Assembly: GCA_018609125.1 (NCBI GenBank)
Contig: JABAYF010000003.1
Span: 8,879 to 72,878 of the forward strand
Reading direction: 5' to 3'
Source of the DNA: Candidatus Nanopelagicales bacterium
GTDB taxonomy: Bacteria > Actinomycetota > Actinomycetes > S36-B12
DNA length: 64,000 nucleotides
Below the pieces are notes generated by a model. That model worked only from the letters and a program-made list of their open reading frames with translations. It had not been told where the DNA came from and searched no databases. Position numbers and translations under genes: made by a program. How positions within the stretch are numbered: position 1 is the first letter of the stretch; each line of letters begins with the position of its first letter. Positions 35,541-52,146 of this stretch are shown here, piece after piece.

Positions 35541-35810
35541 CTAGCGACGCAAACCCAGTTTTTCGATGAGAGCGCGATAGCGGTTGATGTCGGCGGCGGC
35601 AAGGTACTTCAGCAGACGACGACGCTGGCCCACGAGGAGAAGCAGGCCTCGACGTGAGTGGTGGTCATGCTTATGTGTCTTGAGGTGCTCGGTGAGGTCG
35701 GTGATTCGACGACTCAGCATCGCAACTTGAACCTCGGGGCTACCGGTGTCTTGAGCGGATGAACCAAATTCGGCGATGATCTCGCTCTTGGTAGCAGACG
35801 TAAGTGGCAC
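35541..35810 (-). CDS. rpsO: 30S ribosomal protein S15
   Basis: 89 aa, ...[35 protein letters not shown]... Confidence 0.95.
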
Positions 35811-36952: not shown

Positions 36953-38086
36953 ATGGCATCACGTCTGGTACTGCACATCGGCACCCAAAAGTCAGGAACC
37001 ACCTATCTGCAGCGCGTCCTGGCACACCTCTCCGCTGAACTGAGCGATGCCGGCGTGCTTTACCCCACCCGGATAGGCGGACGGGGGCCGGTGTACAACC
37101 ACGAGGCGGCGGCCTATGGCCTACTAGGCACCGAGTCCTTCCCCTGGGTGTCCCCGGCACGAGCAACAGCCCAAGAGTCGGTGTGGTCGCGACTGGTCGA
37201 GCAGGTCCAGCAGTGGCCCGGGCCAGTTGTCGTTTCCGGCGAAGCTCTCTCGGTCGTGAATGCCGACGCAGCCCGACGCTTGGTGGAAGCCTTGGCCGTC
37301 ACTCCGACCGACATCATCATTACCGCACGCGATCTGGGGAGGGTAATTCCTAGTTCGTGGCAGCAACACATCCGCAATGGGCGCAGCACCACCTTCTCTG
37401 CCTATCTTCGCCAACTATCCCAACGGCGTGGAGCTTCCGCCGGTGAATCAACAAACGCGGAATGGGAACTCGACCCCGATCAGACTTTCTGGCGCGCGTA
37501 TGCGATCGGATCACTGGTCAACCGCTGGTCGCCGCTGGCTCGCAGCGTCACGGTCGTACCAGTGCCACGCGGTGGTGCTGACCCGCACGAACTGTGGCAG
37601 CGGTTTGCTACCTCCCTGGAATTAGGACATGTGCTTCCCCACATACCTCCACACATTGATTCGATCGGCGCAAACGTCGGCATCACCGAACCCGAAGCGC
37701 TCGTGCTGGCCGGATTGAATCGACAGTCTCGAAATTCTTCACTGACAGATCCGGCGCTCCGGCAATTGCGCGGCCGAATCGTGAAGGATGCCTTCGTGCC
37801 ACGGGCCGATCGCGGTAACCCGGTTCGCCTGCCCCCGGCGTGGCTTGACCAGGTTCGGGCATGGGCTGATGCCGATGTGAATGATCTCATGCGCACCGAC
37901 GCAAAAATTGTTGGTCCCGTCGAGGACCTTCGCGTCGATGCCTCCCTGCGGGCCGGTGTCTCAACGCCACCTCAGCAGGTGGCGTCAGCGGCAGGGGCAG
38001 CTCTCTACCTGCTCAATCAGCCGCCACCTGCCGAGGCACCAGCAGCTCCCACACGAAAAAAACGGCGCGGTCCCCGTAGCGGGTAG
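36953..38086 (+). CDS. sulfotransferase-fold protein, paralogue A
   Basis: LHIGTQKSGTTYLQRVL resembles the PAPS 5'-phosphosulfate loop (PKSGTTW). IIITARDLGRVIPSSW has the R-x7-S spacing of the 3'-phosphate motif. ATG 36953 is preceded by GGAAGGGA. It is a paralogue of 39136..40221. Confidence 0.6.
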   Translation: MASRLVLHIGTQKSGTTYLQRVLAHLSAELSDAGVLYPTRIGGRGPVYNHEAAAYGLLGTESFPWVSPARATAQESVWSRLVEQVQQWPGPVVVSGEALSVVNADAARRLVEALAVTPTDIIITARDLGRVIPSSWQQHIRNGRSTTFSAYLRQLSQRRGASAGESTNAEWELDPDQTFWRAYAIGSLVNRWSPLARSVTVVPVPRGGADPHELWQRFATSLELGHVLPHIPPHIDSIGANVGITEPEALVLAGLNRQSRNSSLTDPALRQLRGRIVKDAFVPRADRGNPVRLPPAWLDQVRAWADADVNDLMRTDAKIVGPVEDLRVDASLRAGVSTPPQQVASAAGAALYLLNQPPPAEAPAAPTRKKRRGPRSG

Positions 38087-38127
38087 CATTGCAAGGCTGT
38101 GCAACCACCGGCCCCTAGACTGCTGCC

Positions 38128-39126
38128 GTGCTGCTCGTCGTCTGTGGAATGCATCGATCCGGATCAACACTCGTTTGGCAGATCGCTCGCCATCTCGTGT
38201 CCGACCAGCCTGGCCTGCGCAACCCTCGCGGACTGTCAACGTCACAGTTCCCCGCCGCTGCGGCTGATTGTGACGACCTGCTGATGGCAAAAGTGCACTT
38301 TCGTCCCGCACTTGAACGCGATGACTTTCCGCAGGTGGGCGCAAAATATCTCTACACCTATCGCGATGTGCGCGATGTCATGGCGTCGCTTTACCGAAAA
38401 GGCCGCGCAAAGCCAGAGGATCCCGAACGCGGTCCTCGCAGTAGCAGGCTCGGTGCCCGACGCGAACTGCGCGGCGATACCTTCTGGCGATCGCGTGACT
38501 CGGTGTGGATCGGCAAGTACGAGCAATTCAAAGATGATGTGCCTCAACTAGTGCGAGACCTGGCCGACTTCCTTGAAGTGGATGTCACTAGCCAACGCGT
38601 AGACGCGATCGTGGCCGACGTAGACATGCAGGCCCAGCAGAGCCGCGCGGTTGACGCTAAGGCCCACGGGGTTGATGATGACCTTCGCGTCACCTCCAAC
38701 CACATCACCGATGGACGTATGGGCGCGTGGCGCGACACGTTGACCACCGAAGAATTGATCGCAATCGAAGCAGAAAGTGCCGGTTGGTTGGTGGAGCACG
38801 GCTATGAATTAGAGACCGCGGTGGGTAAACGTCGCGCCGCTCAAACCCAATCCGCCGACAGCGAAGCAGAGCCAGCACCAGATCTGCGTGAACACACTCA
38901 GCCCCAGGGCAACGATGTGAAACTCGGGGTACTAACGCTCGCTTCATCCGCCACGGCTGCAGGCGCCATGTTCACCACCCAGCGCAATTCCGGCGTATCG
39001 AATCTCCTGTGGGTGGCCGCGCTGCTGTCCACCAGTGCGCTGGCGTATCGACTAGGTCAGCAGCGTGTTGGGTTTGCGGCTGCTCCAGCGACCATCCTGT
39101 CTTCCCTTCGCTCCTTCGGTTCTTAG
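38128..39126 (+). CDS. PAPS-type sulfotransferase with C-terminal membrane anchor
   Basis: GMHRSGSTLVW (5'-PSB), YTYRDVRDVMASLY (3'-PB) and DGRMGAWRDTLTTEE (GxxGxW..LT) motifs. The C-terminal 90 aa contain two hydrophobic segments (LGVLTLASSATAAGAMF, LLWVAALLSTSALAY). GTG start, with an in-frame stop 12 nt upstream. Confidence 0.75.
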   Translation: MLLVVCGMHRSGSTLVWQIARHLVSDQPGLRNPRGLSTSQFPAAAADCDDLLMAKVHFRPALERDDFPQVGAKYLYTYRDVRDVMASLYRKGRAKPEDPERGPRSSRLGARRELRGDTFWRSRDSVWIGKYEQFKDDVPQLVRDLADFLEVDVTSQRVDAIVADVDMQAQQSRAVDAKAHGVDDDLRVTSNHITDGRMGAWRDTLTTEELIAIEAESAGWLVEHGYELETAVGKRRAAQTQSADSEAEPAPDLREHTQPQGNDVKLGVLTLASSATAAGAMFTTQRNSGVSNLLWVAALLSTSALAYRLGQQRVGFAAAPATILSSLRSFGS

Positions 39127-39135
39127 GACTAGGGA

Positions 39136-40221
39136 GTGGCCGCACGAATAGTCCTGCACATCGGACCCCGGAAGACAGCAACAACATATCTGCAGCGGTG
39201 CCTGGTGAAGTTGACCAGACGCGGCGTCATTGACCCCTCCGTTTACCCACTGAACTCTCGCGAGAAGGACGACCACAACCACGTCCCAGGCATGATTGAT
39301 CTCTTGCGCACCTACGATCAGATACCCCTACAAGATGACGCTTGGCGTCACCTCGATGGGCAGGCTGCATCAGCACTCATTGATCATGCACGACAGGCTT
39401 CGGGTCCGGTTATTTTCTCCGCCGAGGCTGTGGCCGCGACTCGACTGGCGGGTGCGCGAACGGTGATCGCGGCCTTTGCTCCCGCTGAAATCACCGTGGT
39501 TATTACTGCACGGCCGGTGGGCAGAGTGCTACCTAGCTCGTGGGCCCAGCACGTACGCAATGGCAACATCGAAACCCTGGAGAGTTATTTGGATCTGCGC
39601 CGTGCAGAACGTGCTCAGATGGCGACCCTAGAAACACGACCAGACCACGCATTCTGGCGCTCCTACGCATATGGGCACCTCGTTCGTCGTTGGCGCTCAG
39701 CCGGCGCTCGTGTCGTGGTCGCAACCGTGCCATCACATCCAAGTGATCCGAGTGAAATGTGGCGCCGCTTCGTCGCAGCGACAGGTCTCACCGATGTCCT
39801 ACCAGCAGATCCGCCGCGCATCAGCGACGCCAAAGCAAACGCGTCTCTCTCCCTCGATCAATCCCTTGCAATACAGGGCTTCAACGAGACTGCTCGAGCC
39901 GCCGGCCAGGATCGCAGATGGACGCGACGTGAGCATCGCCGGATGCTACGTCACGGGTTAAGGTCAGACCCTGAGCAAGCATTGCAGGACGGCATCCCCG
40001 AACACCTGCATGAACCAGTGCAGCAATGGCAGTTTGACGATGCCAACGACCTTTCGGTGACCGGCGTTGAAACTGTAGGGGATCTCGCTGACCTCACGGC
40101 GACACCGAAACCTGCACCTAGCGACGACGAGATGATTACTGCACTTACCGATACCGTCGGACGCGGTTTACTGGGCATGCAGGCCATGCACGCCACCTCT
40201 GATGAGAGCGTCGACTCCTAA
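39136..40221 (+). CDS. sulfotransferase-fold protein, paralogue C
   Basis: LHIGPRKTATTYLQRCL and VVITARPVGRVLPSSWAQHVRNG align with paralogue A (also FWRSYAYGHLVRRW versus FWRAYAIGSLVNRW). Acidic C-terminal tail. Confidence 0.55.
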   Translation: MAARIVLHIGPRKTATTYLQRCLVKLTRRGVIDPSVYPLNSREKDDHNHVPGMIDLLRTYDQIPLQDDAWRHLDGQAASALIDHARQASGPVIFSAEAVAATRLAGARTVIAAFAPAEITVVITARPVGRVLPSSWAQHVRNGNIETLESYLDLRRAERAQMATLETRPDHAFWRSYAYGHLVRRWRSAGARVVVATVPSHPSDPSEMWRRFVAATGLTDVLPADPPRISDAKANASLSLDQSLAIQGFNETARAAGQDRRWTRREHRRMLRHGLRSDPEQALQDGIPEHLHEPVQQWQFDDANDLSVTGVETVGDLADLTATPKPAPSDDEMITALTDTVGRGLLGMQAMHATSDESVDS

Positions 40222-41306
40222 CCACGTTGAGTTGGTTGGCTCCACTCCTGCAATTGAGATACGAAGCGCACCCCGTCATTCGCCCAGTTCATGTGCGTCG
40301 TCACCCATTCGCGACCCGTGTCGGCAAATGTTTGGCCCAGCGCCGGATCGGCGCGCCATCGTCGAACGATGTCAACGACGGCATTCGTGTCACCAAACCC
40401 AACAACTTCGCCGCCACCGGAATCTTCAATCAGTGCCTTGGTTACCGGGAGGTTCGTGGCGATCACCGGCACACCGTGAGCAAGGTACTCCATGATCTTG
40501 GTCGGGCGTGAGTGCCGATAGTTGGGTTCATCGTGGAGCAACGCCAACCCGGCGATGGCCCCCTCAATCATGGCAAGGGCCTGCTCATTGGCCACATATC
40601 CGTGCCAAATCACCTCTCCACGTTCCTGGGCGGCTCGAACAGGTGCCGTCATTTCCCTATCTACAGAACCAATCAAATGAACCGACACTTCGCCATGTAG
40701 TTGCTGAGCAACTTCTAGCATCTCTACGCCGCCACGGGCACGGGTCACGTGACCCACGTAGACGATGCGATCACCGCCAACGGCGGGAACCACCGCAGGC
40801 ACCGTGGTTGAGTTCGGGATCACCGGATGTGAATCGTGGAACCGCTGCTGATAACTATGTTCAGCAAGCAATAGGTGATAGTGGGCCTCTGCTCGCAATT
40901 CCATCCGGCGGGCAAGCTGCTGCGTGATTGATCGAAGCGGTTTGGGTATCCAACCCTTAAGGCTAATTGACGCGGGCAGGTCTTCGTGCACGTCCCACAC
41001 GATGCACCGGTGCGTCAGTGTTGCGACCGCAAGCAGCAATTCAGGTGAATGCAGCAGCAACACGTCGTGATCGGGCGCCATTTTTCGCAATGTGCGGGTA
41101 GCCGCCACAAGGGCGGAGAACCTATGTCGTCCGTGTGCAGCAGGTACATCCACGCACTCCACACCCGGCATCGGCGTCACCCCGAAGTGTTGAAAGGGTG
41201 CCAGGTAGGTCACCCGGTGGCCGGCGGCGAGGAGGCTGGCGATTTCGCGTGCCGCTATACGCGCATCCCGCGGGTCGTGAACCACGGTGGCCACCAGAAC
41301 ACGCAT
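40218..41306 (-). CDS. glycosyltransferase family 4
   Basis: MRVLVATVVHDPRDARI N-terminus. C-terminal RPTKIMEYLAHGVPVIATN (GT-B donor-binding helix). The ATG shares one base with the upstream ABC ATPase stop (TAATG). Confidence 0.75.
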   Translation of the reverse strand: MRVLVATVVHDPRDARIAAREIASLLAAGHRVTYLAPFQHFGVTPMPGVECVDVPAAHGRHRFSALVAATRTLRKMAPDHDVLLLHSPELLLAVATLTHRCIVWDVHEDLPASISLKGWIPKPLRSITQQLARRMELRAEAHYHLLLAEHSYQQRFHDSHPVIPNSTTVPAVVPAVGGDRIVYVGHVTRARGGVEMLEVAQQLHGEVSVHLIGSVDREMTAPVRAAQERGEVIWHGYVANEQALAMIEGAIAGLALLHDEPNYRHSRPTKIMEYLAHGVPVIATNLPVTKALIEDSGGGEVVGFGDTNAVVDIVRRWRADPALGQTFADTGREWVTTHMNWANDGVRFVSQLQEWSQPTQRG

Positions 41307-42238
41307 TATGCGGGATTCGCATCCGCGGCCTGATCCACCGCTTCGTGTCCAGGCCGGTCCTCTCGGCGCTGGCGACGGCGATCCTTGCGGCCCTTCTTCG
41401 ATTGCAGGCCATATCTTTTCTCATAGGCTGGCACGACTTCAAGCGGATCGCCGTCGGCAATAATCTTGCCTTCATCAAGCCATATCACCCGATCGCAAGT
41501 GGCTCGAATCGACGACATGGAATGACTTACCAAAAAGATGGTGTCCGCTTCATCGCGCAACTGCTGAATCCGCTCGGTACTGCGACGCAGAAACTCACCA
41601 TCGCCGGTGGCAAGGGCCTCATCAATCAACAAGATATCGTGGGTAACCGACGAAGCGATGGCAAATTTTAGTCGAGCACCCATGCCTGAGGAGTAGGTGC
41701 GCATGGGCATGTGAATTGCTTCGCCGATGCCACTGAACTCCACGATGTCGTCATAGAGATGTTGAATGTGGTCAGGACGCAGCCCGAGGGCGAGCAATCC
41801 AAGTTCGATATTCCGGCTGCCCGAAAGCGCCTGGATGAGTGCCGAACTCACCCCGAGGAGTGTCGGCTGGGCATCGGCATAGACAGCGCCGGACGCGGCC
41901 GGCAAAAGACCTGCAATAGAACGCATCAACGTGGACTTACCAGATCCGTTTTTCCCAATAACTCCGATCGCTTCACCCTGGCGGGCAACAAAACTCACCC
42001 CGCGCAAGGCCTGGACTTCGTGCATGACCGCGATCGGCCGCCGTCTAATTGCACGTGCGATTCGGTTCTTGCGCCGCCCGTCAGTGTGGCGTGGTTTGGG
42101 AGTAGCCCACACTCGATAAGACACATGTAAATCATCAACAACGATTTTGATGTCGCCAAGTTTGCGGTCAACAAAGGCAACGCCATCGTCGGTGTCCTCA
42201 GGCTCCGCTATGTCATGGAAATCATCTTCAGTTGCCAC
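41306..42238 (-). CDS. polysaccharide/teichoic-acid-type ABC exporter, ATP-binding subunit (Wzt/TagH-like)
   Basis: Walker A GKNGSGKST, signature YSSGMGARL, Walker B ILLIDEAL. GTG 42238 was chosen, giving an 11-nt overlap with the permease. The ORF maximum is 42346. Confidence 0.85.
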   Translation of the reverse strand: MATEDDFHDIAEPEDTDDGVAFVDRKLGDIKIVVDDLHVSYRVWATPKPRHTDGRRKNRIARAIRRRPIAVMHEVQALRGVSFVARQGEAIGVIGKNGSGKSTLMRSIAGLLPAASGAVYADAQPTLLGVSSALIQALSGSRNIELGLLALGLRPDHIQHLYDDIVEFSGIGEAIHMPMRTYSSGMGARLKFAIASSVTHDILLIDEALATGDGEFLRRSTERIQQLRDEADTIFLVSHSMSSIRATCDRVIWLDEGKIIADGDPLEVVPAYEKRYGLQSKKGRKDRRRQRREDRPGHEAVDQAADANPA

Positions 42239-43112
42239 GGCCGTACCTATTCTCCGCCCGCCAGAAGTACCACACACCGAAGATCCCGATCCCAAAACTC
42301 CACGCGGCGGCCGCCGCCCAGTTCGCTGCTCCACCGGGAGCGTCATAGGTGTTCATGAGGGCGTCGCGCATGATGTTCAGGTACACGGTGCCGGGATTAA
42401 TCTCAATAATGACCACCGCCCACGGAGGTGCGCCGAGTCGATCAAGTCGGTCCGCGATCGGAATCATGACGCCGGATGCGTAGCCCCAGAGCCGCAAAAA
42501 GTAGGGCATCACATCAGCAACATCTTGAACTGCGGCTACCACGCGCGCCATAATCATGGCCATTCCAACGGCGAATAGCGTGATGAGGGCCAACGCCACC
42601 GGTGCGAGAAGCCAATTCCAGGTGATGCGCTCTCCGGTAATAAGCAGGATTCCCAGCATGATTGGAATGGACACCGCAAAAACACGCAACTGCTTGTATA
42701 CGATGGCCAAGGGCAGCACCGCGCGTGGAAAGTGAATTGCGCGAACCAACCCAACATTGCCGGAAATACTTCGTGATCCAGCTGTAACTGATTGGCGAAT
42801 CAGGGCGAATGAAAAAACTCCCACTGCCAAGAAACCAGTGTAGTTCTCGACACTTCCGCGACCGCCCAGCAAGAACCCGAACAAGAACCAGTAAATCGCC
42901 ATGGTGAATACAGGGTCTAGGACCTGCCACAGTTGACCGAGGCGACTTCGGGAGTTCTCCGCCTCCACCTTGGCCGAGGCGAAAGCCCTGATGAACGCCC
43001 GCCGCTGCCAGGTTGCACGCAGGTAGCGGAAGAACGGTGGGCGCTGGTTAACAAGTTCAAGGCCTGACTCAGCGGCAAGGGCTGCACCCGTTATTGCCCG
43101 GCCACCCTCCAT
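42228..43112 (-). CDS. ABC-2 type exporter permease (Wzm/TagG-like)
   Basis: 294 aa, 6 TM helices, N-terminal FFRYLRATWQRRAFIRAFASAKVEAENSRSRLGQLWQVLDP, typical of ABC-2 polysaccharide permeases. Confidence 0.8.
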   Translation of the reverse strand: MEGGRAITGAALAAESGLELVNQRPPFFRYLRATWQRRAFIRAFASAKVEAENSRSRLGQLWQVLDPVFTMAIYWFLFGFLLGGRGSVENYTGFLAVGVFSFALIRQSVTAGSRSISGNVGLVRAIHFPRAVLPLAIVYKQLRVFAVSIPIMLGILLITGERITWNWLLAPVALALITLFAVGMAMIMARVVAAVQDVADVMPYFLRLWGYASGVMIPIADRLDRLGAPPWAVVIIEINPGTVYLNIMRDALMNTYDAPGGAANWAAAAAWSFGIGIFGVWYFWRAENRYGRGN

Positions 43113-43114
43113 AA

Positions 43115-44386
43115 TCAGAGTCGAACCGCCGATGAATGAGATGTCACCCCGCGGGTGTCCAAGAACAAGGTGGCGGCTGCCGCCAGCGCATCAACGTCGT
43201 ACACACGATGATTCTGCAGCAGGACACATACGTCAGCAGAGACCACCGCAGCGTCGATATCAGCGTGGACGTCTAACGTGGACTCGCCCAATTGCCACTG
43301 CTGCACGTAGGGATCGTGGAAGATCACCTCAGCGCCCTTGTCCATTAATTCAACGGCAATGGGTTTGGCCGGGGACTCCCGTTGATCGGCGATGTCTGGC
43401 TTATAGGTGACGCCGAGCAGGCAGACTCGGATGCCGCGCAACGGCTGACCGGCCTCGTTGAGTAGATCCTGGATGCGCCGCACCACGTAGGCAGGCATGC
43501 CGGCGTTGATTTCCTGGGCCAACTCTACGAACCGGAACGGGTACCCCAACTTTGCCTGCACCTGGTAGGACAGGTAGTTGGGGTCAATCGGGATGCAGTG
43601 CCCACCAACACCGGGGCCGGGGTAAAAGGCCTGAAAACCAAAGGGCTTGCTTTTCGCCGCCTCGATGACGTCCCACAAATCGATGTCCAATTCATGACAG
43701 AACCGAGCCATTTCATTGACCAGGGCAATGTTGATGTGGCGGTACGTGTTTTCTAGCAACTTCGCCATCTCCGCCTCGCGTGTCCCTCTCGCCTCCACCA
43801 CCGTATCGACGAATCGGCGGTAAAAATGTGCTGCGGCAGCGGTGCACGCCGGTGTGTGCCCCCCCACGACCTTGGGGGTGTTCCGCATACCGAAAGTGGC
43901 ATTGCCCGGATCAATGCGCTCAGGGCTGAACGCCAGGAAAAAGTCTCGACCGGCGATGAGTCCGGTAGCCTCTAAAATGGGGCGCACCTCATCGTCGGTT
44001 GTTCCCGGATAGGTCGTTGACTCCAAAACCACGAGTTGGCCCCGGTGCAGGTGGGAAGCGATATTTCCCGTGGCACCCAACACGGCTGCGAGGTCGGGCC
44101 CGCCTTCGGGCGTTAACGGGGTGGGCACGCAAATGACAACGGTTGCTGCGCCAGCAAGAACGGCGGGATCCGTCGAGGCGGTGAATCCGGCATCGCGCAT
44201 GACTTCAATGTCAGCGTCACTGAGATCATCCACATGGCTGCGTCCGGCGTTGAGACCATCAATAACATCGGTGGACAGGTCATAGCCAACAACACGCAAA
44301 CCCGCCTCGGTGGCCGCTTGAGCCAGTGGCAGGCCGACATAGCCCATTCCGATGACGACGAGATCGCACGGATCGTGGACCGTCAT
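43115..44386 (-). CDS. nucleotide-sugar 6-dehydrogenase (UDP-HexNAc dehydrogenase family)
   Basis: VVIGMGYVGLPLA Rossmann N-terminus and catalytic GVGGHCIPIDPNYL. ATG 44386 is preceded by AAAGAGG. Confidence 0.85.
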   Translation of the reverse strand: MTVHDPCDLVVIGMGYVGLPLAQAATEAGLRVVGYDLSTDVIDGLNAGRSHVDDLSDADIEVMRDAGFTASTDPAVLAGAATVVICVPTPLTPEGGPDLAAVLGATGNIASHLHRGQLVVLESTTYPGTTDDEVRPILEATGLIAGRDFFLAFSPERIDPGNATFGMRNTPKVVGGHTPACTAAAAHFYRRFVDTVVEARGTREAEMAKLLENTYRHINIALVNEMARFCHELDIDLWDVIEAAKSKPFGFQAFYPGPGVGGHCIPIDPNYLSYQVQAKLGYPFRFVELAQEINAGMPAYVVRRIQDLLNEAGQPLRGIRVCLLGVTYKPDIADQRESPAKPIAVELMDKGAEVIFHDPYVQQWQLGESTLDVHADIDAAVVSADVCVLLQNHRVYDVDALAAAATLFLDTRGVTSHSSAVRL

Positions 44387-44467
44387 ACCGATGCCTCTTT
44401 CGTGTGAATCGCGACCTAGGTCGGGGGGTGAATCCGGCTGGACCGTGTTCTTAGCCACGATCCATAC

Positions 44468-46138
44468 TCAATAACCCAAAGCAGCGTACGCGTTGGCGTA
44501 CCCCGACATCACCTGAGGCCAGGTTCGACACGCCGCAACCCACTCTTTGGCCGCCACCCCGTGCCGTCGGCGAAACTCCGGCTCGGCGTAGCCAGCCAGT
44601 GCCTCAGCCCATGCCTCAGCCGAGAAATCGCCCGCGATGGTGGACCCAGGGGCCAAGGTTTCGCGAACCGCGGGCAGGTTTGAACCCACCACGGGCACGC
44701 CGCGTGCCTGTGCCTGCACCGGCTTCAAGGCAGTAACCCAGCGGGTGAGATCAGAGTCAATGCGCGGCAGGGTCAGCACATCCAGCGTGTCGAAGTACTG
44801 GCGCACCTGGTCAAGACCAACCCGACCCGGGGAAACCAGGGGCACGTGGCGCTCTCGCGCTAGTTCCCGCCACCGCGCCAATTCAGGCCCCTCACCCACC
44901 AGCAGCACCACCACGTTGAGGCCCTGACCGCGAAGTATCGCCGCGGCATCGATGGTGGTGGCCAAACCTTCGTAGGCATACATCGTGGTCACCGAGCCGA
45001 TGACCAGGTCTGCCTGCGCATACGGGCCCAGGATGGAGACGCGATTCTCCGATGGGAAAGCGGTGAGGAAATCGATGTCGACTCCGTTGGGGACGACGAA
45101 TACGCGCTCGGGAGGCACTCCTCGTTGCACAACGTGATCGCGCATGGATTCACCCAGCGTCGTCACCACATCGACCGAGCGCAATACCTGCGTGTGCTGG
45201 GCCCGCAGCCACCGAAACATGTCGGTTTCCTCCGCCTGCTTACCGCCGTGTCCTGCCGCCCAGGTGTGCTCGAAAAAGGTCCGGACTTCATAGGCCACCG
45301 GGATCTGCAGCGCCCGACCAGCCGCGAGTGCTGTCCGACCGTTCATGGCATCGGATGCCCCATGAATAACATGGGGACGCAGCCGTCGAGCGAGTTGAGT
45401 CAGGTGCTTCTCATAGGCTTTTTCAAACCGATCGGAAGCCGGTAAATGCGTTGGCAGCAGTCGGTGATAGGGCACCGTGTCAACGGTGTGATGGTTATCG
45501 GCTGCGATGTCGCCGTGAAAGACCGGGAATCCAAGCCTGGTCACCACCTGGGCATCCCAGCCACACGCACGCTGCGAAGCCGCGACCTGCTGCGTTCGGA
45601 TTGTTGATCCGGCCTGGACTCGGGGCAGGGAGTTCGTGACGACATGCAGAATCGATAGTGGCTGGTCAGTCTTGGCAGCAACGGTTGGGGCTGGAGAAGC
45701 GGCAGCGGTCCACGTGGGCACAGCAGCCCGGGCCAGCCGACTCACCCGTCGAGCAGACGTGATCACCCGCATTCTTCGGCGGCTACCTCGACGCGGGAGG
45801 GCGGCAACCTCATTGACCTGGCCCGACAGCAGGGCAGCAGCGAGCTGAGCAGAATCGTCTGCCGGGTTCTGCGCGGTGAGCGTGGGTAGTAGCGCCATGG
45901 CTCCGGCATAGTCATCCCCCGCAACAGCCTGGTCGAAACGACCTTGAGCATTTGCGGCAGGCCATGGCGAACGTAGCGTGGGTACCGCACGCTGGAGAGC
46001 CATCACTGCGCGTCGGGGATCCTCAGCGAAACGCTGCCATGCCCCGGACGCCACGAGGGGCAGGTGGCGCACGGCGCGAGACAGGGCACGCACGCGAGAA
46101 AACGCACGGGGAGGCGGGTTCGACGGTTCAACGGTCAC
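44468..46138 (-). CDS. glycosyltransferase family 4 with ~160-aa non-GT N-terminal extension
   Basis: The GT4 core begins at LSILHVVTNSLPRVQAGSTIRT. C-terminal LKPVQAQARGVPVVGSNLPA. The upstream 160 codons are open and Ala/Arg-rich. The exact start is uncertain. Confidence 0.75.
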   Translation of the reverse strand: MTVEPSNPPPRAFSRVRALSRAVRHLPLVASGAWQRFAEDPRRAVMALQRAVPTLRSPWPAANAQGRFDQAVAGDDYAGAMALLPTLTAQNPADDSAQLAAALLSGQVNEVAALPRRGSRRRMRVITSARRVSRLARAAVPTWTAAASPAPTVAAKTDQPLSILHVVTNSLPRVQAGSTIRTQQVAASQRACGWDAQVVTRLGFPVFHGDIAADNHHTVDTVPYHRLLPTHLPASDRFEKAYEKHLTQLARRLRPHVIHGASDAMNGRTALAAGRALQIPVAYEVRTFFEHTWAAGHGGKQAEETDMFRWLRAQHTQVLRSVDVVTTLGESMRDHVVQRGVPPERVFVVPNGVDIDFLTAFPSENRVSILGPYAQADLVIGSVTTMYAYEGLATTIDAAAILRGQGLNVVVLLVGEGPELARWRELARERHVPLVSPGRVGLDQVRQYFDTLDVLTLPRIDSDLTRWVTALKPVQAQARGVPVVGSNLPAVRETLAPGSTIAGDFSAEAWAEALAGYAEPEFRRRHGVAAKEWVAACRTWPQVMSGYANAYAALGY

Positions 46139-46182
46139 GTCTGGGATAGTAGGCGGTGCAACCTCCCGACCGAGAGGCTCCG

Positions 46183-47289
46183 ATGACTCTGCTGCACATT
46201 ACTGGCGCTCGACCCAATTTTCCCAAGGCGGCTCCAGTCATCGCGGCTCTGGCGGAATTGGGGGTCCGCCAGCGCTTAGTTCACACCGGTCAGCATTATG
46301 ACGACCGCATGTCTGAAGTCTTTTTTCGCGAATTGAGTCTGCCTCAACCTGACGTGAATCTAGGCGTGGGGTCAGGCTCCCATGCCCAGCAAACGGCTGC
46401 CCTCATGATCGGCCTGGAAGAGGAAATTCTCTCGACCGAACCACAGTTGGTCATCGTCTATGGCGATGTGAACTCGACCCTGGCTGCGGCCATCGTCGCT
46501 GCCAAGCTGGGCGTTCCCTTGGCTCACGTGGAGGCCGGGCTGCGAAGTTTCGACATGTCGATGCCCGAAGAAATCAACCGGTTGGTCACCGATGCACTTG
46601 CCGACCTCCTCTTCGTGACCAGTCCGGATGCTATTGCTCACCTTGCTCGAGAAGGCGTGCCGGAAGGCAAGATTCACCTGGTGGGCAATCCCATGATCGA
46701 CACGCTCCTGGCGCAACTGCATCGCCTCAATGTAGATCAGGCCCGTCAAAACATCGGCGTGGGTGTCGACTACATCGTGGCAACCTTGCACAGGCCGGGC
46801 AATGTGGATGACCCACAGGTAGCAGCAGACCTGGTCGCCGTGGTTCACGAAGCAGCCGGCATCGCCGACATTGTGCTTCCGCTACACCCTCGCGGCAGAG
46901 CGGTACTTGAAGCTCTCGGCATCGGCGACCATCCGCGCGTTCACGTGGTGGAGCCCCTCGGCTATATCGACTTCATGTCGCTCGTACGTGGATCCCTCGC
47001 GGTCATTACTGATTCTGGCGGGGTGCAGGAAGAAACGACGGTGCTCGGTGTCCCCTGTTTAACGCTGCGGCCCAACACTGAACGCCCCGTCACTATTAGT
47101 CACGGCACCAACCAGTTGGTCACTACTCATTCGCTCCCTGCCGCACTCGCCGAGCAGGTGGCGCTACGCCGAGAACAACCCGACCGCCTTGCTCCACCTA
47201 CTCGCATCCCACCGCTGTGGGATGGTCATGCGGGCGAACGAATCGCACACCTGATCGTTGACTGGCTCGACGATCGGTACGCCCGATGA
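46183..47289 (+). CDS. wecB: UDP-N-acetylglucosamine 2-epimerase (non-hydrolysing)
   Basis: ITGARPNFPKAAPV, HTGQHYD, GDVNSTLAAA, HVEAGLRSFDMSMPEEINR. ATG 46183 is preceded by GAGAGG. Confidence 0.9.
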   Translation: MTLLHITGARPNFPKAAPVIAALAELGVRQRLVHTGQHYDDRMSEVFFRELSLPQPDVNLGVGSGSHAQQTAALMIGLEEEILSTEPQLVIVYGDVNSTLAAAIVAAKLGVPLAHVEAGLRSFDMSMPEEINRLVTDALADLLFVTSPDAIAHLAREGVPEGKIHLVGNPMIDTLLAQLHRLNVDQARQNIGVGVDYIVATLHRPGNVDDPQVAADLVAVVHEAAGIADIVLPLHPRGRAVLEALGIGDHPRVHVVEPLGYIDFMSLVRGSLAVITDSGGVQEETTVLGVPCLTLRPNTERPVTISHGTNQLVTTHSLPAALAEQVALRREQPDRLAPPTRIPPLWDGHAGERIAHLIVDWLDDRYAR

Positions 47290-48998
47290 CACCGGAAGAA
47301 GAATTCGCGCCAGCCGTTGAACCGGAGCGGGTGGCGCGCGTCACCGAAGAAAATGCTCGACTACGGATGGAACTAAGACACGCCAACGCCCGAGCGCAGC
47401 GTTTCGAAGCTGATGCTCGTCGGGTTCGAGCGTCAACTAAGTACACCGTGGGTGACCTTCTGGTTCGGGGGGCCAAGGATCCGCGTCGGCTGTTTCTTCT
47501 TCCACGCGAGTTACTCAGCCTCTACCGCCTGCGCAAACATCGACGTACCGCCAGCGAAGTAGCACTCACAGAAGTCACTCGGGCTCACCGCAGCGATTTG
47601 TCTAACGAACATGCCGCACGCCTGCTACTTCCACGTATCGGTGCCGCCGCCGATGCTTCGGTGAGCGTCGGTGGTGCGCTGAGCCGCACTACCGAACAAC
47701 TCCTGCAGCCCTATGCCGCGACCACCTCGGTACTCCCTCATGATGCCGCCGCACTCATCATGGACGCTGATCCCGATATCGTTTTCGTGGATACCGCAGC
47801 TGGCCTACCTGGCGAATCGTGGTCACACCTGGGCAACCCGGCGGCAACCGATCGGGCGCTGGCCGCCTTCGATCTGGTGACCGCGGCCAGAGAGCGAGGC
47901 CGCCCGGTCGTGATGCTGCGCAATAGCTCACCCGGTCACACAGCCGGCCTCGTTGGCATTATCGATCGATGCGATCTCGTGGTCGATGCAACCCACTCAG
48001 TTCGGGAGAACGTATGGCTGCCCGGCACCCGGTTGGACTGGTGGAATGGGCAACAGCCAGCCGATCTTGATACTCCTCGACAGCACCGGCCACTGCTCAC
48101 GGTTAGCGGTGGCGACACCAGCGGACACGTCCGAGCGTGGGCTCTTAGCCGCGGCGTAGAACCGGTCAACGTGCGCCCGCAGGCCCCACCCATCGGTGCG
48201 CTCCGGGAAGCGATAGCACTGGCCGATTTTTTCGTCGACACACAGCCGGGCACTTCCAAGCGCGTCGGCGGTTCAGCTGCCATGTGGGCCGCCCTGGTGG
48301 CGGGGCTACCCATCGTGAGTAGAGACACACACGAACTACGCTCGGTGCTAGGCGAACTCGTTGAGCCACAGCACGGCATCGTCTATCACTATGGGTCTGA
48401 ATCAGACCTCGATAACACTCTCAACGCCGCGCAAACGGGCCCGGCAAGGTCCTTGGCCACCCACTGGCAGGTGTTGCGCCGCATTGCCTTGCGCCATACC
48501 GCCCCGGTCACCCTGACCGATCTTGCCCAACGCCTCCATCTATCGATCACAGCCGGTGCGTGCCGAGGCATCGCCGTGATCGTTGACGCCGAAATCACTG
48601 CCGACCGACTGGTTGAACAATTACTCGCACAAACGTTGCGACCAGCCGAAATTGTTGTCCGAGGCAGGATCGGTGATCGCTTGCGTGACCAAGTGCTGCA
48701 GTTACACATTGACGTGATCGACGCATCCGGTGACATCGCGCACATCGCTCAGCGCACGACATCAGCTTGGATCGCTCAGGTACATTGCCCGTCCACGGTG
48801 ACCCTGCCAGCAGATCTCCTTCTCGATGCAATGATCAGCGTTGAAATCAGCCAAGCCAACCAAGTTCAGCTGGGTCACTTGGAGCCTGGTGACCTACAAA
48901 ACAACACCGGTGTGCATCTGCTCCGGCGCAGCGTCGCTCTCGGCGACGCCTCCGCACCCCTGACCATCGCTCCTCCACACCCTGGTTGGCACACATGA
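47286..48998 (+). CDS. hypothetical protein: N-terminal coiled coil plus degenerate GT-like regions
   Basis: Residues ~15-50 (VARVTEENARLRMELRHANARAQRFEADARRVRAS) look like a coiled coil. The middle region GGSAAMWAALVAGLPIVSRDTHELRSVLGE resembles a GT-B donor helix without the acidic residues. IAVIVDAEITADRLVEQLLAQTLRPAEIVVRG resembles a GT-A N-terminus without the DxD context. ATGA-coupled on both sides. Confidence 0.5.
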   Translation: MTPEEEFAPAVEPERVARVTEENARLRMELRHANARAQRFEADARRVRASTKYTVGDLLVRGAKDPRRLFLLPRELLSLYRLRKHRRTASEVALTEVTRAHRSDLSNEHAARLLLPRIGAAADASVSVGGALSRTTEQLLQPYAATTSVLPHDAAALIMDADPDIVFVDTAAGLPGESWSHLGNPAATDRALAAFDLVTAARERGRPVVMLRNSSPGHTAGLVGIIDRCDLVVDATHSVRENVWLPGTRLDWWNGQQPADLDTPRQHRPLLTVSGGDTSGHVRAWALSRGVEPVNVRPQAPPIGALREAIALADFFVDTQPGTSKRVGGSAAMWAALVAGLPIVSRDTHELRSVLGELVEPQHGIVYHYGSESDLDNTLNAAQTGPARSLATHWQVLRRIALRHTAPVTLTDLAQRLHLSITAGACRGIAVIVDAEITADRLVEQLLAQTLRPAEIVVRGRIGDRLRDQVLQLHIDVIDASGDIAHIAQRTTSAWIAQVHCPSTVTLPADLLLDAMISVEISQANQVQLGHLEPGDLQNNTGVHLLRRSVALGDASAPLTIAPPHPGWHT

Positions 48999-51235
48999 CT
49001 CGAACCCGGCGCGCCCTCGTCTATGCCGATGTGAACCTCAACATCTTGGATGGTTCAGCGATTTGGGTCCAATCGATGTGTGAGGCCCTTTCGCAAGCCG
49101 GCGTGGATACGCAGGTGTTACTCAAAGCACCGGTACTCACCGATCGACTTGTGGCTCCGCTGCGCGCCATGCCTGGCGTCACCGTCGTGGACCCCTTCGT
49201 CGACGGACTTGTCGGTAACGATGATGCCCTCTCCCCGGCACAGGCTGCTGACATCTTGCAGACACTCGATGACCGGCTGCGGGTCGATGTCATCGTTGTC
49301 CGGGGCTTGCGCCTTGCCGTAACCGCATCATCCCGCGAACAACTACACGGACGCTTGTGGACCTATCTCACCGATATTCCCCACGATGTCACCGGACTCA
49401 CCGACTCGGTGGTTGATCAACTCGTAATAGTCGCCGAAGCCAGTCGATACCTGTTGTGCCAGACCGAACAATTGCGGTCCTTCCTCGAAGCGGTGATCCC
49501 TGCAGCGGCGGGCAGATGTGTGCTGTGGCCACCGATCGTTCCCGAACCTGACTTCGAAATCGTCCCGCGCACCCCTCTCTTCGACGAATCCACCGGCAGG
49601 CCGAACCGCCCGATCCAACTGGCCTACACCGGAAAGTACGCCGCACGTTGGAATACCCTGGAAATGACCGAGATACCCCAATTGCTAAGCGAACATGGCA
49701 TCAACGCGGAACTGAACATGGTCGGTGACAAGGTGCATGATGAGCCGGATATTCCCGGCTGGTCTGATCGAATGACGGCTGCCCTACGCAACACTGCGGG
49801 CATCACGTGGCACGGTGGGGTGAGCAGGCAGGAGGCTATGCGACTATCGGCACAGGCCGACATCGGTTTGTCGTGGCGCACTGCGGACATGGATGCGAGC
49901 CTGGAACTTTCCACCAAGGTATTGGAATTCGCTCGCCTTTCCGTTCCCGTCATGCTTAACCGCACCCCCATGCACGAAGACCTTTTCGGTGCTGACTACC
50001 CGCTTTTCGTTGCCGATGCCGACGACATCGTGCAGATCTTGACCAACACCACCGGACTATCCGACACCCTCACGCGAGCAACCGCGTTGGCCTATCGTGG
50101 TGTGAGCGCACACCTGATGAATTCGGCGGTGCACCGCCTCCAAGAACTCCTCCGGCGGGCGTTACCCGATGCTCCGCCATCACATGCGGCATTTGCCGCC
50201 CCGCTGAAGGTTCTTGTCGCCAGCCACGATCTGAAGTTCTTCAGTCGACTACAAGAACATCTGGGGGCTCTCCCCAGCGTTGAACTCCGTATCGACCACT
50301 GGCCCGCTCTCGCACAGCACGATGAAGAGGTCAGTAAAGATCTTGCCTCGTGGGCCGATGTTGTTATTTGCGAATGGGCCGGGCCAAACCTGGTGTGGTA
50401 CAGCAAGAACAAGACGCCTGGGCAACGCCTCGTTACCCGCCTACACCGATTCGAACTCAGTGCAGGGTGGCTAACCGATGTCGAGATCGCCAACGTCGAT
50501 CAAGTGATTTGCGTCAGCCCCTACTACGCTCAACTCACGGCCCAAACAACTGGATGGCCGAGTGGAAAGATCGTGGTGATTCCCAACTGGGTAGATCTCG
50601 AACAGTTCCAGCGCCCCAAACTCGCTGGCGCACAGTTCACCCTCGGCATGATCGGAATCTCACCGGTTCGTAAACGTCCCGACATCGGCATCGACGTGCT
50701 CTCTCGATTGCGTCGCTACGACGCACGATTCACCATGGCGGTAAAGTCCAAAATGCCCTGGGACTACTGGTGGATCTGGCGCAAGCCAGAGGAGCGCATC
50801 GATACCGAACGACTCATGGGCCGAATCCGTGATGACCCCACCGTTCACGATGCCGTTTCCTTCGATGGTTTCGGGGGTGATGTCGCGGCGTGGTTGCGTC
50901 GCGTGGGCTGGGTGTTATCGACTTCTGAGGATGAAAGTTTCCATCTCGCCCCAGCCGAGGGCATGGCATCGCACGCGGTGCCCTGTCTGCTGCCCTGGCC
51001 TGGAGCCGACACCATTTACCACCCTCGATGGATTAGTCAGACGGCACAGGCCATGGCCGAAAAGATTTTGGACATCACCGAAGCAGGTACCTGGGAGCAG
51101 ACTGCCGAAGAGGCCTTCAAGCAGGTACGCGCATCGTTCCCGCTGACCGACGTAGCACGAATGTGGACTGAAGTTCTCACGACCGATGTGGATCCAGCAA
51201 CAGCTCAAGTTCCGCTCTACCCTACCGACGAGTGA
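48995..51235 (+). CDS. two-module glycosyltransferase (tandem GT4-like domains), candidate polymerase
   Basis: Module 1: VYADVNLNILDGSAIWVQSMCEAL ... ELSTKVLEFARLSVPVML. Module 2: LKVLVASHDLKFF ... EDESFHLAPAEGMASHAVPCLL (E-x7-E). ATG 48995 overlaps the upstream stop (ATGA). Confidence 0.7.
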   Translation: MTRTRRALVYADVNLNILDGSAIWVQSMCEALSQAGVDTQVLLKAPVLTDRLVAPLRAMPGVTVVDPFVDGLVGNDDALSPAQAADILQTLDDRLRVDVIVVRGLRLAVTASSREQLHGRLWTYLTDIPHDVTGLTDSVVDQLVIVAEASRYLLCQTEQLRSFLEAVIPAAAGRCVLWPPIVPEPDFEIVPRTPLFDESTGRPNRPIQLAYTGKYAARWNTLEMTEIPQLLSEHGINAELNMVGDKVHDEPDIPGWSDRMTAALRNTAGITWHGGVSRQEAMRLSAQADIGLSWRTADMDASLELSTKVLEFARLSVPVMLNRTPMHEDLFGADYPLFVADADDIVQILTNTTGLSDTLTRATALAYRGVSAHLMNSAVHRLQELLRRALPDAPPSHAAFAAPLKVLVASHDLKFFSRLQEHLGALPSVELRIDHWPALAQHDEEVSKDLASWADVVICEWAGPNLVWYSKNKTPGQRLVTRLHRFELSAGWLTDVEIANVDQVICVSPYYAQLTAQTTGWPSGKIVVIPNWVDLEQFQRPKLAGAQFTLGMIGISPVRKRPDIGIDVLSRLRRYDARFTMAVKSKMPWDYWWIWRKPEERIDTERLMGRIRDDPTVHDAVSFDGFGGDVAAWLRRVGWVLSTSEDESFHLAPAEGMASHAVPCLLPWPGADTIYHPRWISQTAQAMAEKILDITEAGTWEQTAEEAFKQVRASFPLTDVARMWTEVLTTDVDPATAQVPLYPTDE

Positions 51236-51243
51236 AGACGACC

Positions 51244-52146
51244 TCACCCGCTGGGAAACACCGCGCAGTAGTGCAATCGACCCTCTATTGATTCACCGAT
51301 CGCGAGCAAGCGCTGGTTGTGTACGAGCGCGGTGGCAGTGGCAGACAGCGTGTCTCCGGGCCACGGTATACGCGTGCCATGACTAATGGCCAACGCGGTG
51401 TCGGAGTCAATCTGGCACACCGGCAGCGAACGACTAGCGGCTTCTGCAGGGGACATTAACAACTTGGCTGCCTCCACCGGTGTCAACTTTTCCCACTCCG
51501 AGAGTGACTGTGCCTCAGCCAAGGTGAAGGCTCCGGAGGTGGTGCGGCACAGTGACGTCAGATGACCACCCACACCGAGTAACGCGCCGGTGTCGCGGGC
51601 TATCGCACGGATGTAGGTGCCAGCCGAACACCGAACATGAATCTCTACGTCTACGGTGTCGCTCCCCCGGGTGACCTGACCGAGTCTGAGTTCGTGGATT
51701 GTGACGGTTCGAGGCTCCAGTTCCACCTGTTCCCCCGCCCGCACCCGCGCGTAGGCACGCTTGCCGTCAACCTTTACGGCACTGACCGAACTGGGCACCT
51801 GGTTGATCGTGCCCACGTTGCTGGCGAACGCGGCCTCAATCTGGGCCTGGGTGAGCGAAGCGGTGGATTCTGCGGCGGTCTGGTTGCCTTGCGCATCGTC
51901 AGTGTCCGTGGACTGACCTAGTCGTACGGTTGCGACGTAACCCTTATCGTCCCTGGTGAGATAACCAAGGAGTCGAGTGGCCTGCCCTACACCAAGCACC
52001 AGCACCCCGGTGGCATCAGGATCAAGCGTTCCGGCATGGCCAATCTTCTTCATTCCCAGGGTTCGCCGTGCCCTTGAGACCACCGCATGGGAACTCATGC
52101 CCGCCGGCTTGTCGATAACGACAACACCGATCGGGCTATTCAGCAT
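51244..52146 (-). CDS. truB: tRNA pseudouridine(55) synthase
   Basis: GVVVIDKPAGMSSHAVV and GHAGTLDPDATGVLVLG (catalytic Asp). Start set at MLNSPIG (52146), an 11-nt overlap with rbfA. Confidence 0.9.
   Translation of the reverse strand: MLNSPIGVVVIDKPAGMSSHAVVSRARRTLGMKKIGHAGTLDPDATGVLVLGVGQATRLLGYLTRDDKGYVATVRLGQSTDTDDAQGNQTAAESTASLTQAQIEAAFASNVGTINQVPSSVSAVKVDGKRAYARVRAGEQVELEPRTVTIHELRLGQVTRGSDTVDVEIHVRCSAGTYIRAIARDTGALLGVGGHLTSLCRTTSGAFTLAEAQSLSEWEKLTPVEAAKLLMSPAEAASRSLPVCQIDSDTALAISHGTRIPWPGDTLSATATALVHNQRLLAIGESIEGRLHYCAVFPSG

Follow-up and report, generated by a model that had tools for sequence, protein, structure and literature searches.

What fills the interval between ribF and truB in an uncultured freshwater actinobacterium, and how did it come to be there? 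The question is raised by a stretch of 64,000 nt from Candidatus Nanopelagicales bacterium (contig JABAYF010000003.1, positions 8,879–72,878), here called the window, within which all coordinates are given. Eleven genes, g1 to g11, lie between ribF and truB in the window. We favour, with modest confidence, the view that they constitute a vertically inherited chromosomal locus, inserted once between truB and ribF, for the ABC-transporter-dependent assembly of an anionic envelope glycopolymer. The polymer would contain N-acetylmannosamine (ManNAc) and its uronic acid (ManNAcA) and would be sulfated in the cytoplasm before export.

The layout of the locus is as follows. An open reading frame (ORF) listing combined with Pfam and NCBIfam scans finds 11 tightly packed ORFs (36953–51235) between ribF (35927–36877, − strand; FAD_syn and Flavokinase domains) and truB (51244–52137, −; TruB_N, 176.6 bits). 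The left boundary gene, ribF, is divergent from g1 across a 75-nt spacer, and the right boundary gene, truB, is convergent with g11, with a gap of 8 nt. There are three transcription blocks: g1–g3 on the + strand (36953–40221), g8–g4 on the − strand (46138–40218), and g9–g11 on the + strand (46156 or 46183 to 51235). Junctions between locus genes range from −13 to +41 nt, and stop and start codons overlap in several of them. A first-pass annotation of the sequence had described this arrangement, and the ORF listing and hidden Markov model (HMM) scans reproduced it. Pfam confirmed the conserved flanks, pnp-rpsO-ribF on one side and truB-rbfA-infB-nusA on the other. HMMs likewise bore out the calls of a 2-epimerase, a 6-dehydrogenase, four glycosyltransferase (GT) modules in three GT4 proteins, and a Wzm/Wzt exporter.

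Two of the genes are assigned to precursor synthesis. The g9 gene (46156–47289, +) encodes a non-hydrolysing UDP-N-acetylglucosamine (UDP-GlcNAc) 2-epimerase of the WecB/MnaA type (PF02350, 329 bits), which passes the wecB equivalog model TIGR00236 with 292 bits against a cut-off of 210; its start is either a GTG at 46156 or an ATG at 46183. The g7 gene (43115–44458, −) encodes a nucleotide-sugar 6-dehydrogenase with all three UDPG_MGDP_dh domains, and the product passes the nucleoside diphosphate (NDP)-sugar dehydrogenase subfamily model TIGR03026 with 414 bits against a cut-off of 190. Among the specific models, UDP-ManNAc dehydrogenase (WecC type) comes nearest at 248–255 bits, followed by TviB at 187 and TuaD at 125. 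The g9 and g7 models together indicate dedicated synthesis of a nucleotide-activated uronic acid, with the substrate presumed. Depending on the assembly, g7 is called at 423 or 447 residues.

The GT4 modules, four in all, are distributed over three proteins. The g4 product (40218–41306, −; 362 residues) is a single-module GT4 in which Glyco_trans_1_4, Glycos_transf_1, and Glyco_trans_1_2 all score above their cut-offs; its NCBIfam matches are weak and sub-cut-off (TuaC, 30 bits). The g8 product (44468–46138, −; 556 residues) is also a single-module GT4, with Glyco_trans_4_4, Glyco_transf_4, and Glyco_trans_1_4 matches and a poorly conserved N-terminal extension of ~160 residues. It reaches 229 bits against TIGR04063, for which the cut-off is 442, and the PDB sequence search gave no relative at E ≤ 1e-3. 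The other two modules are in g11 (48986–51235, +), a 749-residue tandem double GT-B (GT4-like) glycosyltransferase with Glyco_trans_1_2/1_4 at residues 227–389 and Glyco_transf_4 at residues 456–540. Both halves contain invariant residues, including a canonical E650-x7-E658 in the second, and mean column identity is 72%. No relative of g11 was found in the PDB sequence search. We regard g11 as a candidate bifunctional polymerase.

The exporter is encoded inside the GT block by two adjacent, overlapping genes, as expected of ABC-dependent assembly. The g6 gene (42228–43112, −) encodes a Wzm-type ABC-2 permease of 294 residues (PF01061, 42.7 bits; cut-off 26.9), which also matches the galactan Wzm model at a sub-cut-off 71 bits. 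The g5 gene (41306–42238, −) encodes a Wzt/TagH-like exporter ATPase of 310 residues (ABC_tran PF00005, 60 bits). TagH models are the best NCBIfam matches of g5 (173–177 bits), followed by the mycobacterial galactan Wzt (141 bits), all under equivalog cut-offs. Its nucleotide-binding domain spans approximately residues 45–275 and is followed by a 35-residue basic tail, with no C-terminal carbohydrate-binding module. The g5 ORF extends to 42346 and would overlap wzm by 119 nt; gene callers use the 42238 start, which gives the 310-residue protein.

Several strongly hydrophobic segments are found in g6 (Wzm) alone among the 11 products. Since the other products lack them, and since g1–g3 start directly at the nucleotide-binding loop, these products are taken to be cytoplasmic. 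The GTs without such segments and the lack of Wzx/Wzy fit polymerisation in the cytoplasm. HMM scans of the locus and of the other scanned window genes detected no WecA/MraY-type, LCP, Wzx/Wzy, transposase, or integrase domains. The same genes include no polyprenyl-phosphate initiating transferase of the WecA/TagO or WbaP type, which may be encoded elsewhere, and none of the 11 locus proteins matched Polysacc_synt or a Wzy-type model. The first-pass annotation had already remarked that initiating transferase, LCP, Wzx/Wzy, and mobility genes are missing in cis, and the locus scans agree. It had nevertheless seen a complete ABC-transporter-dependent assembly line. The ABC logic is supported, but the line is not complete, since priming, ligation, and the supply of 3′-phosphoadenosine 5′-phosphosulfate (PAPS) lie outside the locus.

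How widely is the locus shared? An exact-protein look-up with S15 returned ten contigs, each from the species of the window, and the block is beside ribF in every one. Diverged relatives were reached through homologues of g1, g10, and g11 (L034, L036, L037, L039, L040, and L041/42). The block occupies the same ribF–truB site in all seven diverged lineages sampled, whose GC ranges from 0.60 to 0.72. PNPase of these relatives is 83–92% identical to that of the window, InfB 85–88%, TruB 48–54%, and the ribF product 49–64%. The locus proteins are as conserved as those of ribF and truB, or more so, with 76–82% identity for the dehydrogenase, 72–84% for the epimerase, and 61–69% for g11. Since synteny is kept across seven lineages, we reject the idea that unrelated genes came together here by chance.

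Variation within the clade is limited to the loss of g3, a deletion in one g1, and one change of gene order; g2 and the rest form a constant core. A g3 orthologue is present in L034 and L041 and absent in L036, L037, L039, and L040. The g1 of L039 (1208–2014), which is uncalled by gene finders, has an in-frame internal deletion of residues ~183–301, a sign that the accessory sulfotransferases may be labile or in decay. In L037, the genes stand in a shuffled order. The dehydrogenase of L039 is called short, at 305 residues. Database searches with g11 gave 1485 matches, of which the best 120 (~741 residues) are all 60–69% identical, save one 99% near-copy. The sources of these 120 are numerous metagenome assemblies from lakes, the BUCK21 sample series among them, and their spread indicates that the clade is abundant and microdiverse in freshwater data sets.

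Outgroups were gathered by a TruB-profile metagenome scan, which gave 80 actinobacterial loci (TruB 45–61%, InfB ≤79%, PNPase ≤80% identical), 54 of them informative. None of the 80 loci contains a homologue of g11, g1, g2, g3, or g10. That is, the comparison of ribF–truB intervals called for in the first-pass annotation finds the block in all seven related lineages and in none of the 54 informative outgroup loci. In 44 of these 54, including low-GC (0.45–0.49) contigs, ribF is within 3 kb of truB, and it is within ~1 kb in most of 22 distant genomes, two Microbacteriaceae among them. The junction had been described as highly conserved, and its contiguity in these loci and genomes agrees, but other Actinobacteria hold unrelated cargo there: 10 of the 54 loci have other content at the junction or are rearranged. 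One locus (L060, 10966–14430) carries an OpuA-like glycine-betaine ABC transporter at this position (ATPase with a CBS domain, permease, and OpuAC), and another (L079, 10878–16078) carries a trypsin-like protease and a methyltransferase. Given the unrelated cargo in other lineages, the site is permissive in Actinobacteria, and insertions seem to have recurred at the truB–ribF junction in this phylum. The present locus is best read as a single ancestral insertion that defines a single clade of uncultured freshwater actinobacteria, to which NCBI gives the label Candidatus Nanopelagicales. In the reading that we favour, it is kept in place under purifying selection.

The locus had at first been called an island. 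A genomic island of recent horizontal origin, accessory and strain-variable, would account for the splitting of a junction that most bacteria keep intact, and absence from the outgroups is the one island property found. The composition is native: GC is ~60% across the whole window and 0.58–0.63 in locus and flanks alike, and in codon-usage distance the locus cannot be told apart from the flank pool (p = 0.44). GC at third codon positions is 0.634 in the locus versus 0.659 in 23 flank genes (p = 0.047). The suggested check for a deviation in GC or codon usage thus finds that the locus does not deviate from its flanks. No tRNAs, flanking repeats, or att-like features were found, the only notable repeat being the g1/g3 paralogy, and integrases and transposases are missing as well. 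The block is at the same site in the ten same-species contigs and in the seven diverged lineages. An island in this sense is hardly credible; native composition, the lack of mobility features, and presence in all relatives rule out recent horizontal transfer. What we see is a clade-wide, position-fixed locus, neither horizontally acquired nor strain-variable.

Would the polymer be sulfated? The ribF-proximal block encodes one protein for which the family assignment is firm. The g2 product (38128–39126, +; 332 residues) is a Sulfotransfer_1 protein (PF00685, 53.5 bits; cut-off 22), and g2 is the only sulfotransferase gene that is intact in every related locus with the ribF-proximal end read. 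The motifs MHRSGSTLVWQ, KVH, and YTYRDxRDxxAS are invariant across six orthologues. A C-terminal hydrophobic tail, with its maximum at residues ~260–300 in six of six orthologues, is a probable membrane anchor. PDB sequence matches of g2 are weak and are to cytosolic sulfotransferases.

The neighbours of g2 belong to another family. The g1 product (36953–38086, +; 377 residues) is a divergent sulfotransferase-clan protein with an N-terminal HIGTQKSGTTYLQ loop resembling a 5′-phosphosulfate-binding (5′-PSB) loop and an ARDLGRVIPSS motif resembling a 3′-phosphate-binding (3′-PB) motif. The g3 product (39136–40221, +; 361 residues) is a paralogue with 32% identity to g1, and the first 69 nt of the two genes are 75% identical. 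The family has 218 database matches. Residues K13, T16, T17, R126, and S134 are invariant in a 56-sequence alignment. The loop, QKSGTT or RKTATT, fits the sulfotransferase PKxGTT 5′-PSB pattern and not the Walker A pattern GxxxxGK[ST], and the invariant R-D-x3-R-x3-S motif fits the 3′-PB pattern. We take these segments of g1, g2, and g3 to be the 5′-PSB and 3′-PB elements by analogy with sulfotransferase structures, not by structural superposition. In a permissive scan, Sulfotransfer_3 was matched weakly by 41 of the 56 family members (best E 1e-4) and Sulfotransfer_1 by 17, and no other Pfam family was found in more than two. The first-pass annotation had counted three sulfotransferase-fold proteins. 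The call of g2 passes the threshold, but g1 and g3 are sub-threshold, and their assignment draws on motifs, weak family-wide matches, and a weak fold match. We regard g1 and g3 as probable but unproven sulfotransferases.

The g10 gene (47286–48998, +) encodes a lineage-restricted protein of 570 residues that has no match in Pfam, NCBIfam, or PDB sequence searches. It had been annotated as a coiled-coil protein; the coiled coil is present, but g10 is also a GT-B-like module of a wider family, which in other organisms occurs joined to a GT4 like g8 or to a GT2. The AlphaFold2 (AF2) model (pLDDT 79.5) shows a long N-terminal helix (residues 13–49), conserved basic amphipathic helices (51–88), a disordered linker, a GT-B-like two-Rossmann core (~125–420), and an extra C-terminal α/β domain. 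Foldseek relates it to the GT-B enzymes GtfC (9htx; prob 1.0, TMt 0.45) and MurG. A word-seeded search found only 26 homologues among 5.8e9 proteins; an exhaustive profile search gave 305 representatives, 85 of them at <1e-30. The named members are all uncultured Actinomycetota or freshwater metagenomes. Within the block, g10 is the fastest-evolving gene, with 37–41% full-length identity in L036, L039, and L040.

Two fusions suggest what g10 does. The metagenome protein P0318 (1237 residues) consists of a tetratricopeptide repeat (TPR) region, a GT4, and a g10-like domain; the GT4 of this fusion shares 35% identity with g8 (E 1e-60). P0337 (1053 residues) consists of a rhamnosyltransferase-like region, a GT2, and a g10-like domain. 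As a Rosetta-stone arrangement, the P0318 fusion indicates that g8 and g10 are functionally linked, and g10 is predicted to be a glycan-assembly module working with g8-type GT4s. The N-terminal half of g10 is more conserved than the C-terminal half, which is usually the donor-binding half; for this reason g10 may, but need not, be catalytic.

The pathway that we propose takes the domain identities as given above and infers the order of the steps and their substrates. The g9 enzyme would epimerise UDP-GlcNAc to UDP-ManNAc, which g7 would oxidise to UDP-ManNAcA. A polyprenyl-phosphate primer would come from a WecA/TagO-type enzyme encoded elsewhere. On this primer, g4 and g8, the latter with its GT-B-like partner g10, may make an adaptor or add side residues, and the highly conserved tandem GT g11 would polymerise a disaccharide-type repeat. 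At the cytoplasmic face, the membrane-tethered g2 would use PAPS to O-sulfate the lipid-linked chain as it grows, and so would the accessory paralogues g1 and g3 in lineages that have them. The Wzm/Wzt exporter, which has no carbohydrate-binding module and would be unable to read a terminal cap, would then flip the chain outward. Finally, an LCP ligase encoded elsewhere would probably attach the chain to peptidoglycan.

Three things in this proposal are the least certain: whether the polymer is sulfated at all, which uronic acid it contains, and where it ends up (wall, capsule, or glycoconjugate). The following points weigh against it. ManNAcA as the g7 product is suggested by the best-ranking model and the adjacent epimerase, but the dehydrogenase is under every equivalog cut-off. 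No PAPS-synthesis genes (cysC/cysNC, cysQ) were found in the locus, in the 64-kb window, or in the 10-kb flanks of related contigs. Neither g1 nor g3 has a Pfam or NCBIfam match at E ≤ 0.01; Sulfotransfer_3 is the best match of g1, at 15.4 bits against a cut-off of 27, and g3 has none at that level. It is these last two points, PAPS genes missing in cis and sub-threshold g1 and g3, that make sulfation uncertain. Further, the AF2 model of g1 (pLDDT 92.9) has weak Foldseek matches in the PDB, headed by P-loop GTPases (GPN-loop) and kinases; the list includes the heparan-sulfate N-sulfotransferase NST (1nst; prob 0.99, E 0.013), the CurM sulfotransferase, and TPST. PDB sequence searches with g1, also profile-based, gave no meaningful match. 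Alignment of the g1 and g2 families by hhalign is insignificant (prob 1%), with only the 3′-PB motif aligned. Every carrier of the locus is an uncultured metagenome-assembled genome or a metagenome contig, and attachment of the polymer to the wall is pure inference. In addition, the ABC O-antigen cluster of Aeromonas salmonicida has a sulfotransferase-domain gene, yet no sulfate is seen in the published structure (PMC4483657).

Proteins of the g1 family are also found away from glycan genes, which is a further point of this kind. They occur, with 40–45% identity, in Actinomadura sp. WMMB 499 (L035; CP044407.1, ~822.6–823.8 kb) and in L038 (10001–11173). One of the two genes follows that of a 339-residue protein without a Pfam match, near bacA, and the other is between glnA and glnE. 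Since members exist outside glycan clusters, the family is not glycan-specific, and it probably has several acceptor types.

Part of this evidence would be explained if g1 and g3, and possibly g2, were not active PAPS sulfotransferases at all. They could be inactive scaffolds or P-loop enzymes of another kind (a kinase or a nucleotide-binding adaptor), in which case the polymer would be an ordinary teichuronic-acid-like glycan without sulfate. The missing curated match, the GPN-loop GTPases and kinases at the head of the Foldseek list, the hhalign result, and the missing PAPS genes are all in keeping with such an explanation, but the form of the g1/g3 loop, the invariance of the R-D-x3-R-x3-S motif, the recurrence of sulfotransferase families alone in the Pfam scan, and the score of g2 are not. 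We consider it quite unlikely.

The sulfotransferase-domain ORF of A. salmonicida is beside wzt and wbbB, and a bulk structure in which no sulfate was seen is what a sub-stoichiometric cap would give (PMC4483657). By this analogy, the sulfotransferase or sulfotransferases of the present locus would add a terminal sulfate cap that ends elongation, and g10 would be a scaffold or ruler, like WbdD or WbbB, which control chain length in Gram-negative ABC O-antigen systems. The long N-terminal helix of g10, its non-canonical GT-B-like core, and the greater conservation of its N-terminal half would suit such a role. Against this, the helix has only ~37 residues, the 310-residue Wzt has no C-terminal carbohydrate-binding module with which to read a cap, and two or three sulfotransferases exceed the need of a cap. 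A cap-and-ruler system is therefore unlikely.

The destination of the polymer is a separate matter. The same machinery might serve a product that is not linked to peptidoglycan, namely a capsule or exopolysaccharide, a lipid-anchored glycan, or a glycan on a surface (S-layer-type) protein. ABC-dependent routes also feed S-layer glycans in Firmicutes. No LCP ligase or other anchoring enzyme is encoded in the locus or window, and ABC-dependent routes are known to feed capsules (Kps; PMC11766843). The data do not discriminate between these fates, but clade-wide fixation in a housekeeping string and the TagH-like ATPase fit a constitutive wall polymer slightly better. A product outside the wall is a possibility to be kept in mind, if a doubtful one.

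A wall glycopolymer, as we favour, invites comparison with known systems. The locus shares with the wall teichoic acid systems of Bacillus and Staphylococcus cytoplasmic assembly on a lipid carrier, two-component ABC-2 export, and a WecB/MnaA epimerase, and its ATPase is best matched by the TagH models (173–177 bits). In B. subtilis, the initiation and ligation genes for wall teichoic acid are unlinked, as at the present locus. In contrast to those systems, there are no CDP-glycerol or CDP-ribitol genes, no TagB/TagF-type phosphotransferase, and no GT26 TagA match here. Instead, the locus has a uronic-acid dehydrogenase and sulfotransferases, and the TagH scores are under equivalog cut-offs.

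Teichuronic acids, such as the ManNAcA-Glc polymer of Micrococcus luteus and those made by B. subtilis tuaA–H and Streptomyces utr, offer a second comparison. The likeness lies in a phosphate-free anionic N-acetyl-hexosaminuronic polymer, in the logic of epimerase and dehydrogenase for the precursor, and in weak GT4 similarity to TuaC and TuaH. The B. subtilis tua system uses a Wzx/Wzy-like route and a UDP-Glc dehydrogenase, whereas the TuaD model scores only 125 bits on g7. For actinomycetes, teichuronic acid is described as poorly characterised; in Streptomyces, the utr clusters rely on aminotransferase and oxidase genes for making ManNAc3NAcA (bioRxiv 10.1101/2025.04.24.650519). The present locus lacks such genes, and none of the three systems named here is described with sulfotransferases. 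The earlier statement that the locus matches no described teichoic or teichuronic acid locus agrees with the HMM ranks and with the literature searched.

The ABC-dependent O-antigens and the mycobacterial galactan (Wzm/Wzt; WbdA–D, WbbB, and GlfT2) offer a third comparison. They also have a Wzm/Wzt-type exporter (galactan models, 141 and 71 bits), a multi-domain processive GT (g11 being comparable to the bifunctional polymerases WbdA or GlfT2), and a coiled-coil accessory protein (here g10). The locus differs in that its Wzt has no carbohydrate-binding module, that it encodes no terminator (kinase, methyltransferase, or Kdo-transferase), and that its host is of Gram-positive type. Moreover, the PDB and Pfam searches with g10 reveal no sequence relationship with WbdD or WbbB.

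Sulfotransferase genes inside a polysaccharide cluster are shared with Cobetia marina KMM 1449, Vibrio sp. KMM 8419, and cyanobacterial synechan. Synechan is exported by Wzx/Wzy. These hosts are Gram-negative or cyanobacterial and use KpsMT(ED) or Wzx/Wzy, whereas the present host is an actinobacterium with three sulfotransferases, two of them from a family without a curated model. The sulfated capsule of C. marina KMM 1449, whose structure has been solved, is a characterised precedent for sulfotransferases in a cluster with an ABC (Kps) exporter; cysNC, cysD, cysQ, and a permease for sulfate are encoded in that cluster too (PMC11766843). PAPS genes in cis thus distinguish the Cobetia cluster from the present locus. 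No description of this locus, or of a sulfated wall polymer in Actinobacteria, was found in the literature searched.

The remainder of the window is an actinobacterial core backbone, with ispG, proS, nusA, and infB, and pnp, pepR, dapB, thyX, dapA, rnj, ftsK, pgsA, lhr, recA, and miaA. In the left flank are pnp (33164–35356, −) and rpsO (35541–35810, −). The rpsO–pnp leader contains an Actino-pnp RNA (Rfam RF01688; 35420–35478, −) scoring 56.2 bits against a gathering threshold of 47.7. As an expected cis-regulatory element, this RNA gives independent support for an actinobacterial origin. Beyond truB, rbfA, infB, and nusA follow to 56881, all on the − strand. The longest truB ORF reaches 52281 and would overlap rbfA by 146 nt; given this overlap and the relatives, which are called at 288–297 residues, the start at 52137 (297 residues) is favoured. 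A promoter and terminator scan stayed at chance level (5 versus 5.3 expected and 10 versus 12.2, respectively). A gene for a TauE/SafE-family anion (sulfite/sulfonate) exporter is located at 58459–59181 (−), ~7 kb past the locus. Its position beside genes for a DUF4439 protein and a HAD hydrolase is kept in L040 and L041/L042. Near miaA, a separate 376-residue GT4 glycosyltransferase (503–1633, −) also matches GT4-conflict (PF20706, 56.9 bits); it is positionally unrelated to the locus.

What does the locus mean for these organisms? It is well delimited and clade-fixed, has an unusual sulfotransferase complement, and is most likely an unusual variant of a familiar pathway. The truB–ribF insertion is a clean synapomorphy of the clade. 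The locus also gives a functional context to two unannotated families, g1/g3 with its 218 matches and the g10 GT-B-like module with its 305 representatives. If the sulfotransferases are inactive, the locus is one more uncharacterised actinobacterial cluster of the teichuronic-acid type. Polysaccharide clusters vary without end; that the wall polymer is sulfated and free of phosphate is nonetheless a specific, testable prediction.

Bacteria seldom make sulfated polysaccharides, and such few cases as the literature searched documents are Gram-negative or cyanobacterial. Tentatively, and on balance doubtfully, we may go further and suggest that the locus makes the constitutive principal anionic wall polymer of this widespread clade, a phosphate-free sulfated teichuronic acid whose charge comes from carboxylate and ester sulfate instead of the phosphate of teichoic acid. 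As far as that literature shows, such a sulfated wall glycopolymer would be without precedent in Gram-positive-type bacteria, and its synthesis would employ a sulfotransferase family (g1/g3) and a GT-B-like module (g10), neither of which has a curated model. The polymer would then be a fixed, clade-wide, phosphorus-sparing adaptation of the envelope. Analogues are the substitution of sulfolipid for phospholipid in plankton and the switch of Bacillus from teichoic to teichuronic acid under phosphate starvation. Such a polymer would explain the surface charge of abundant freshwater Actinobacteria under phosphorus limitation, would bear on the recognition of these cells by phages and grazers, and would be a source of sulfated, uronic-acid-rich material for the dissolved organic matter of lakes.

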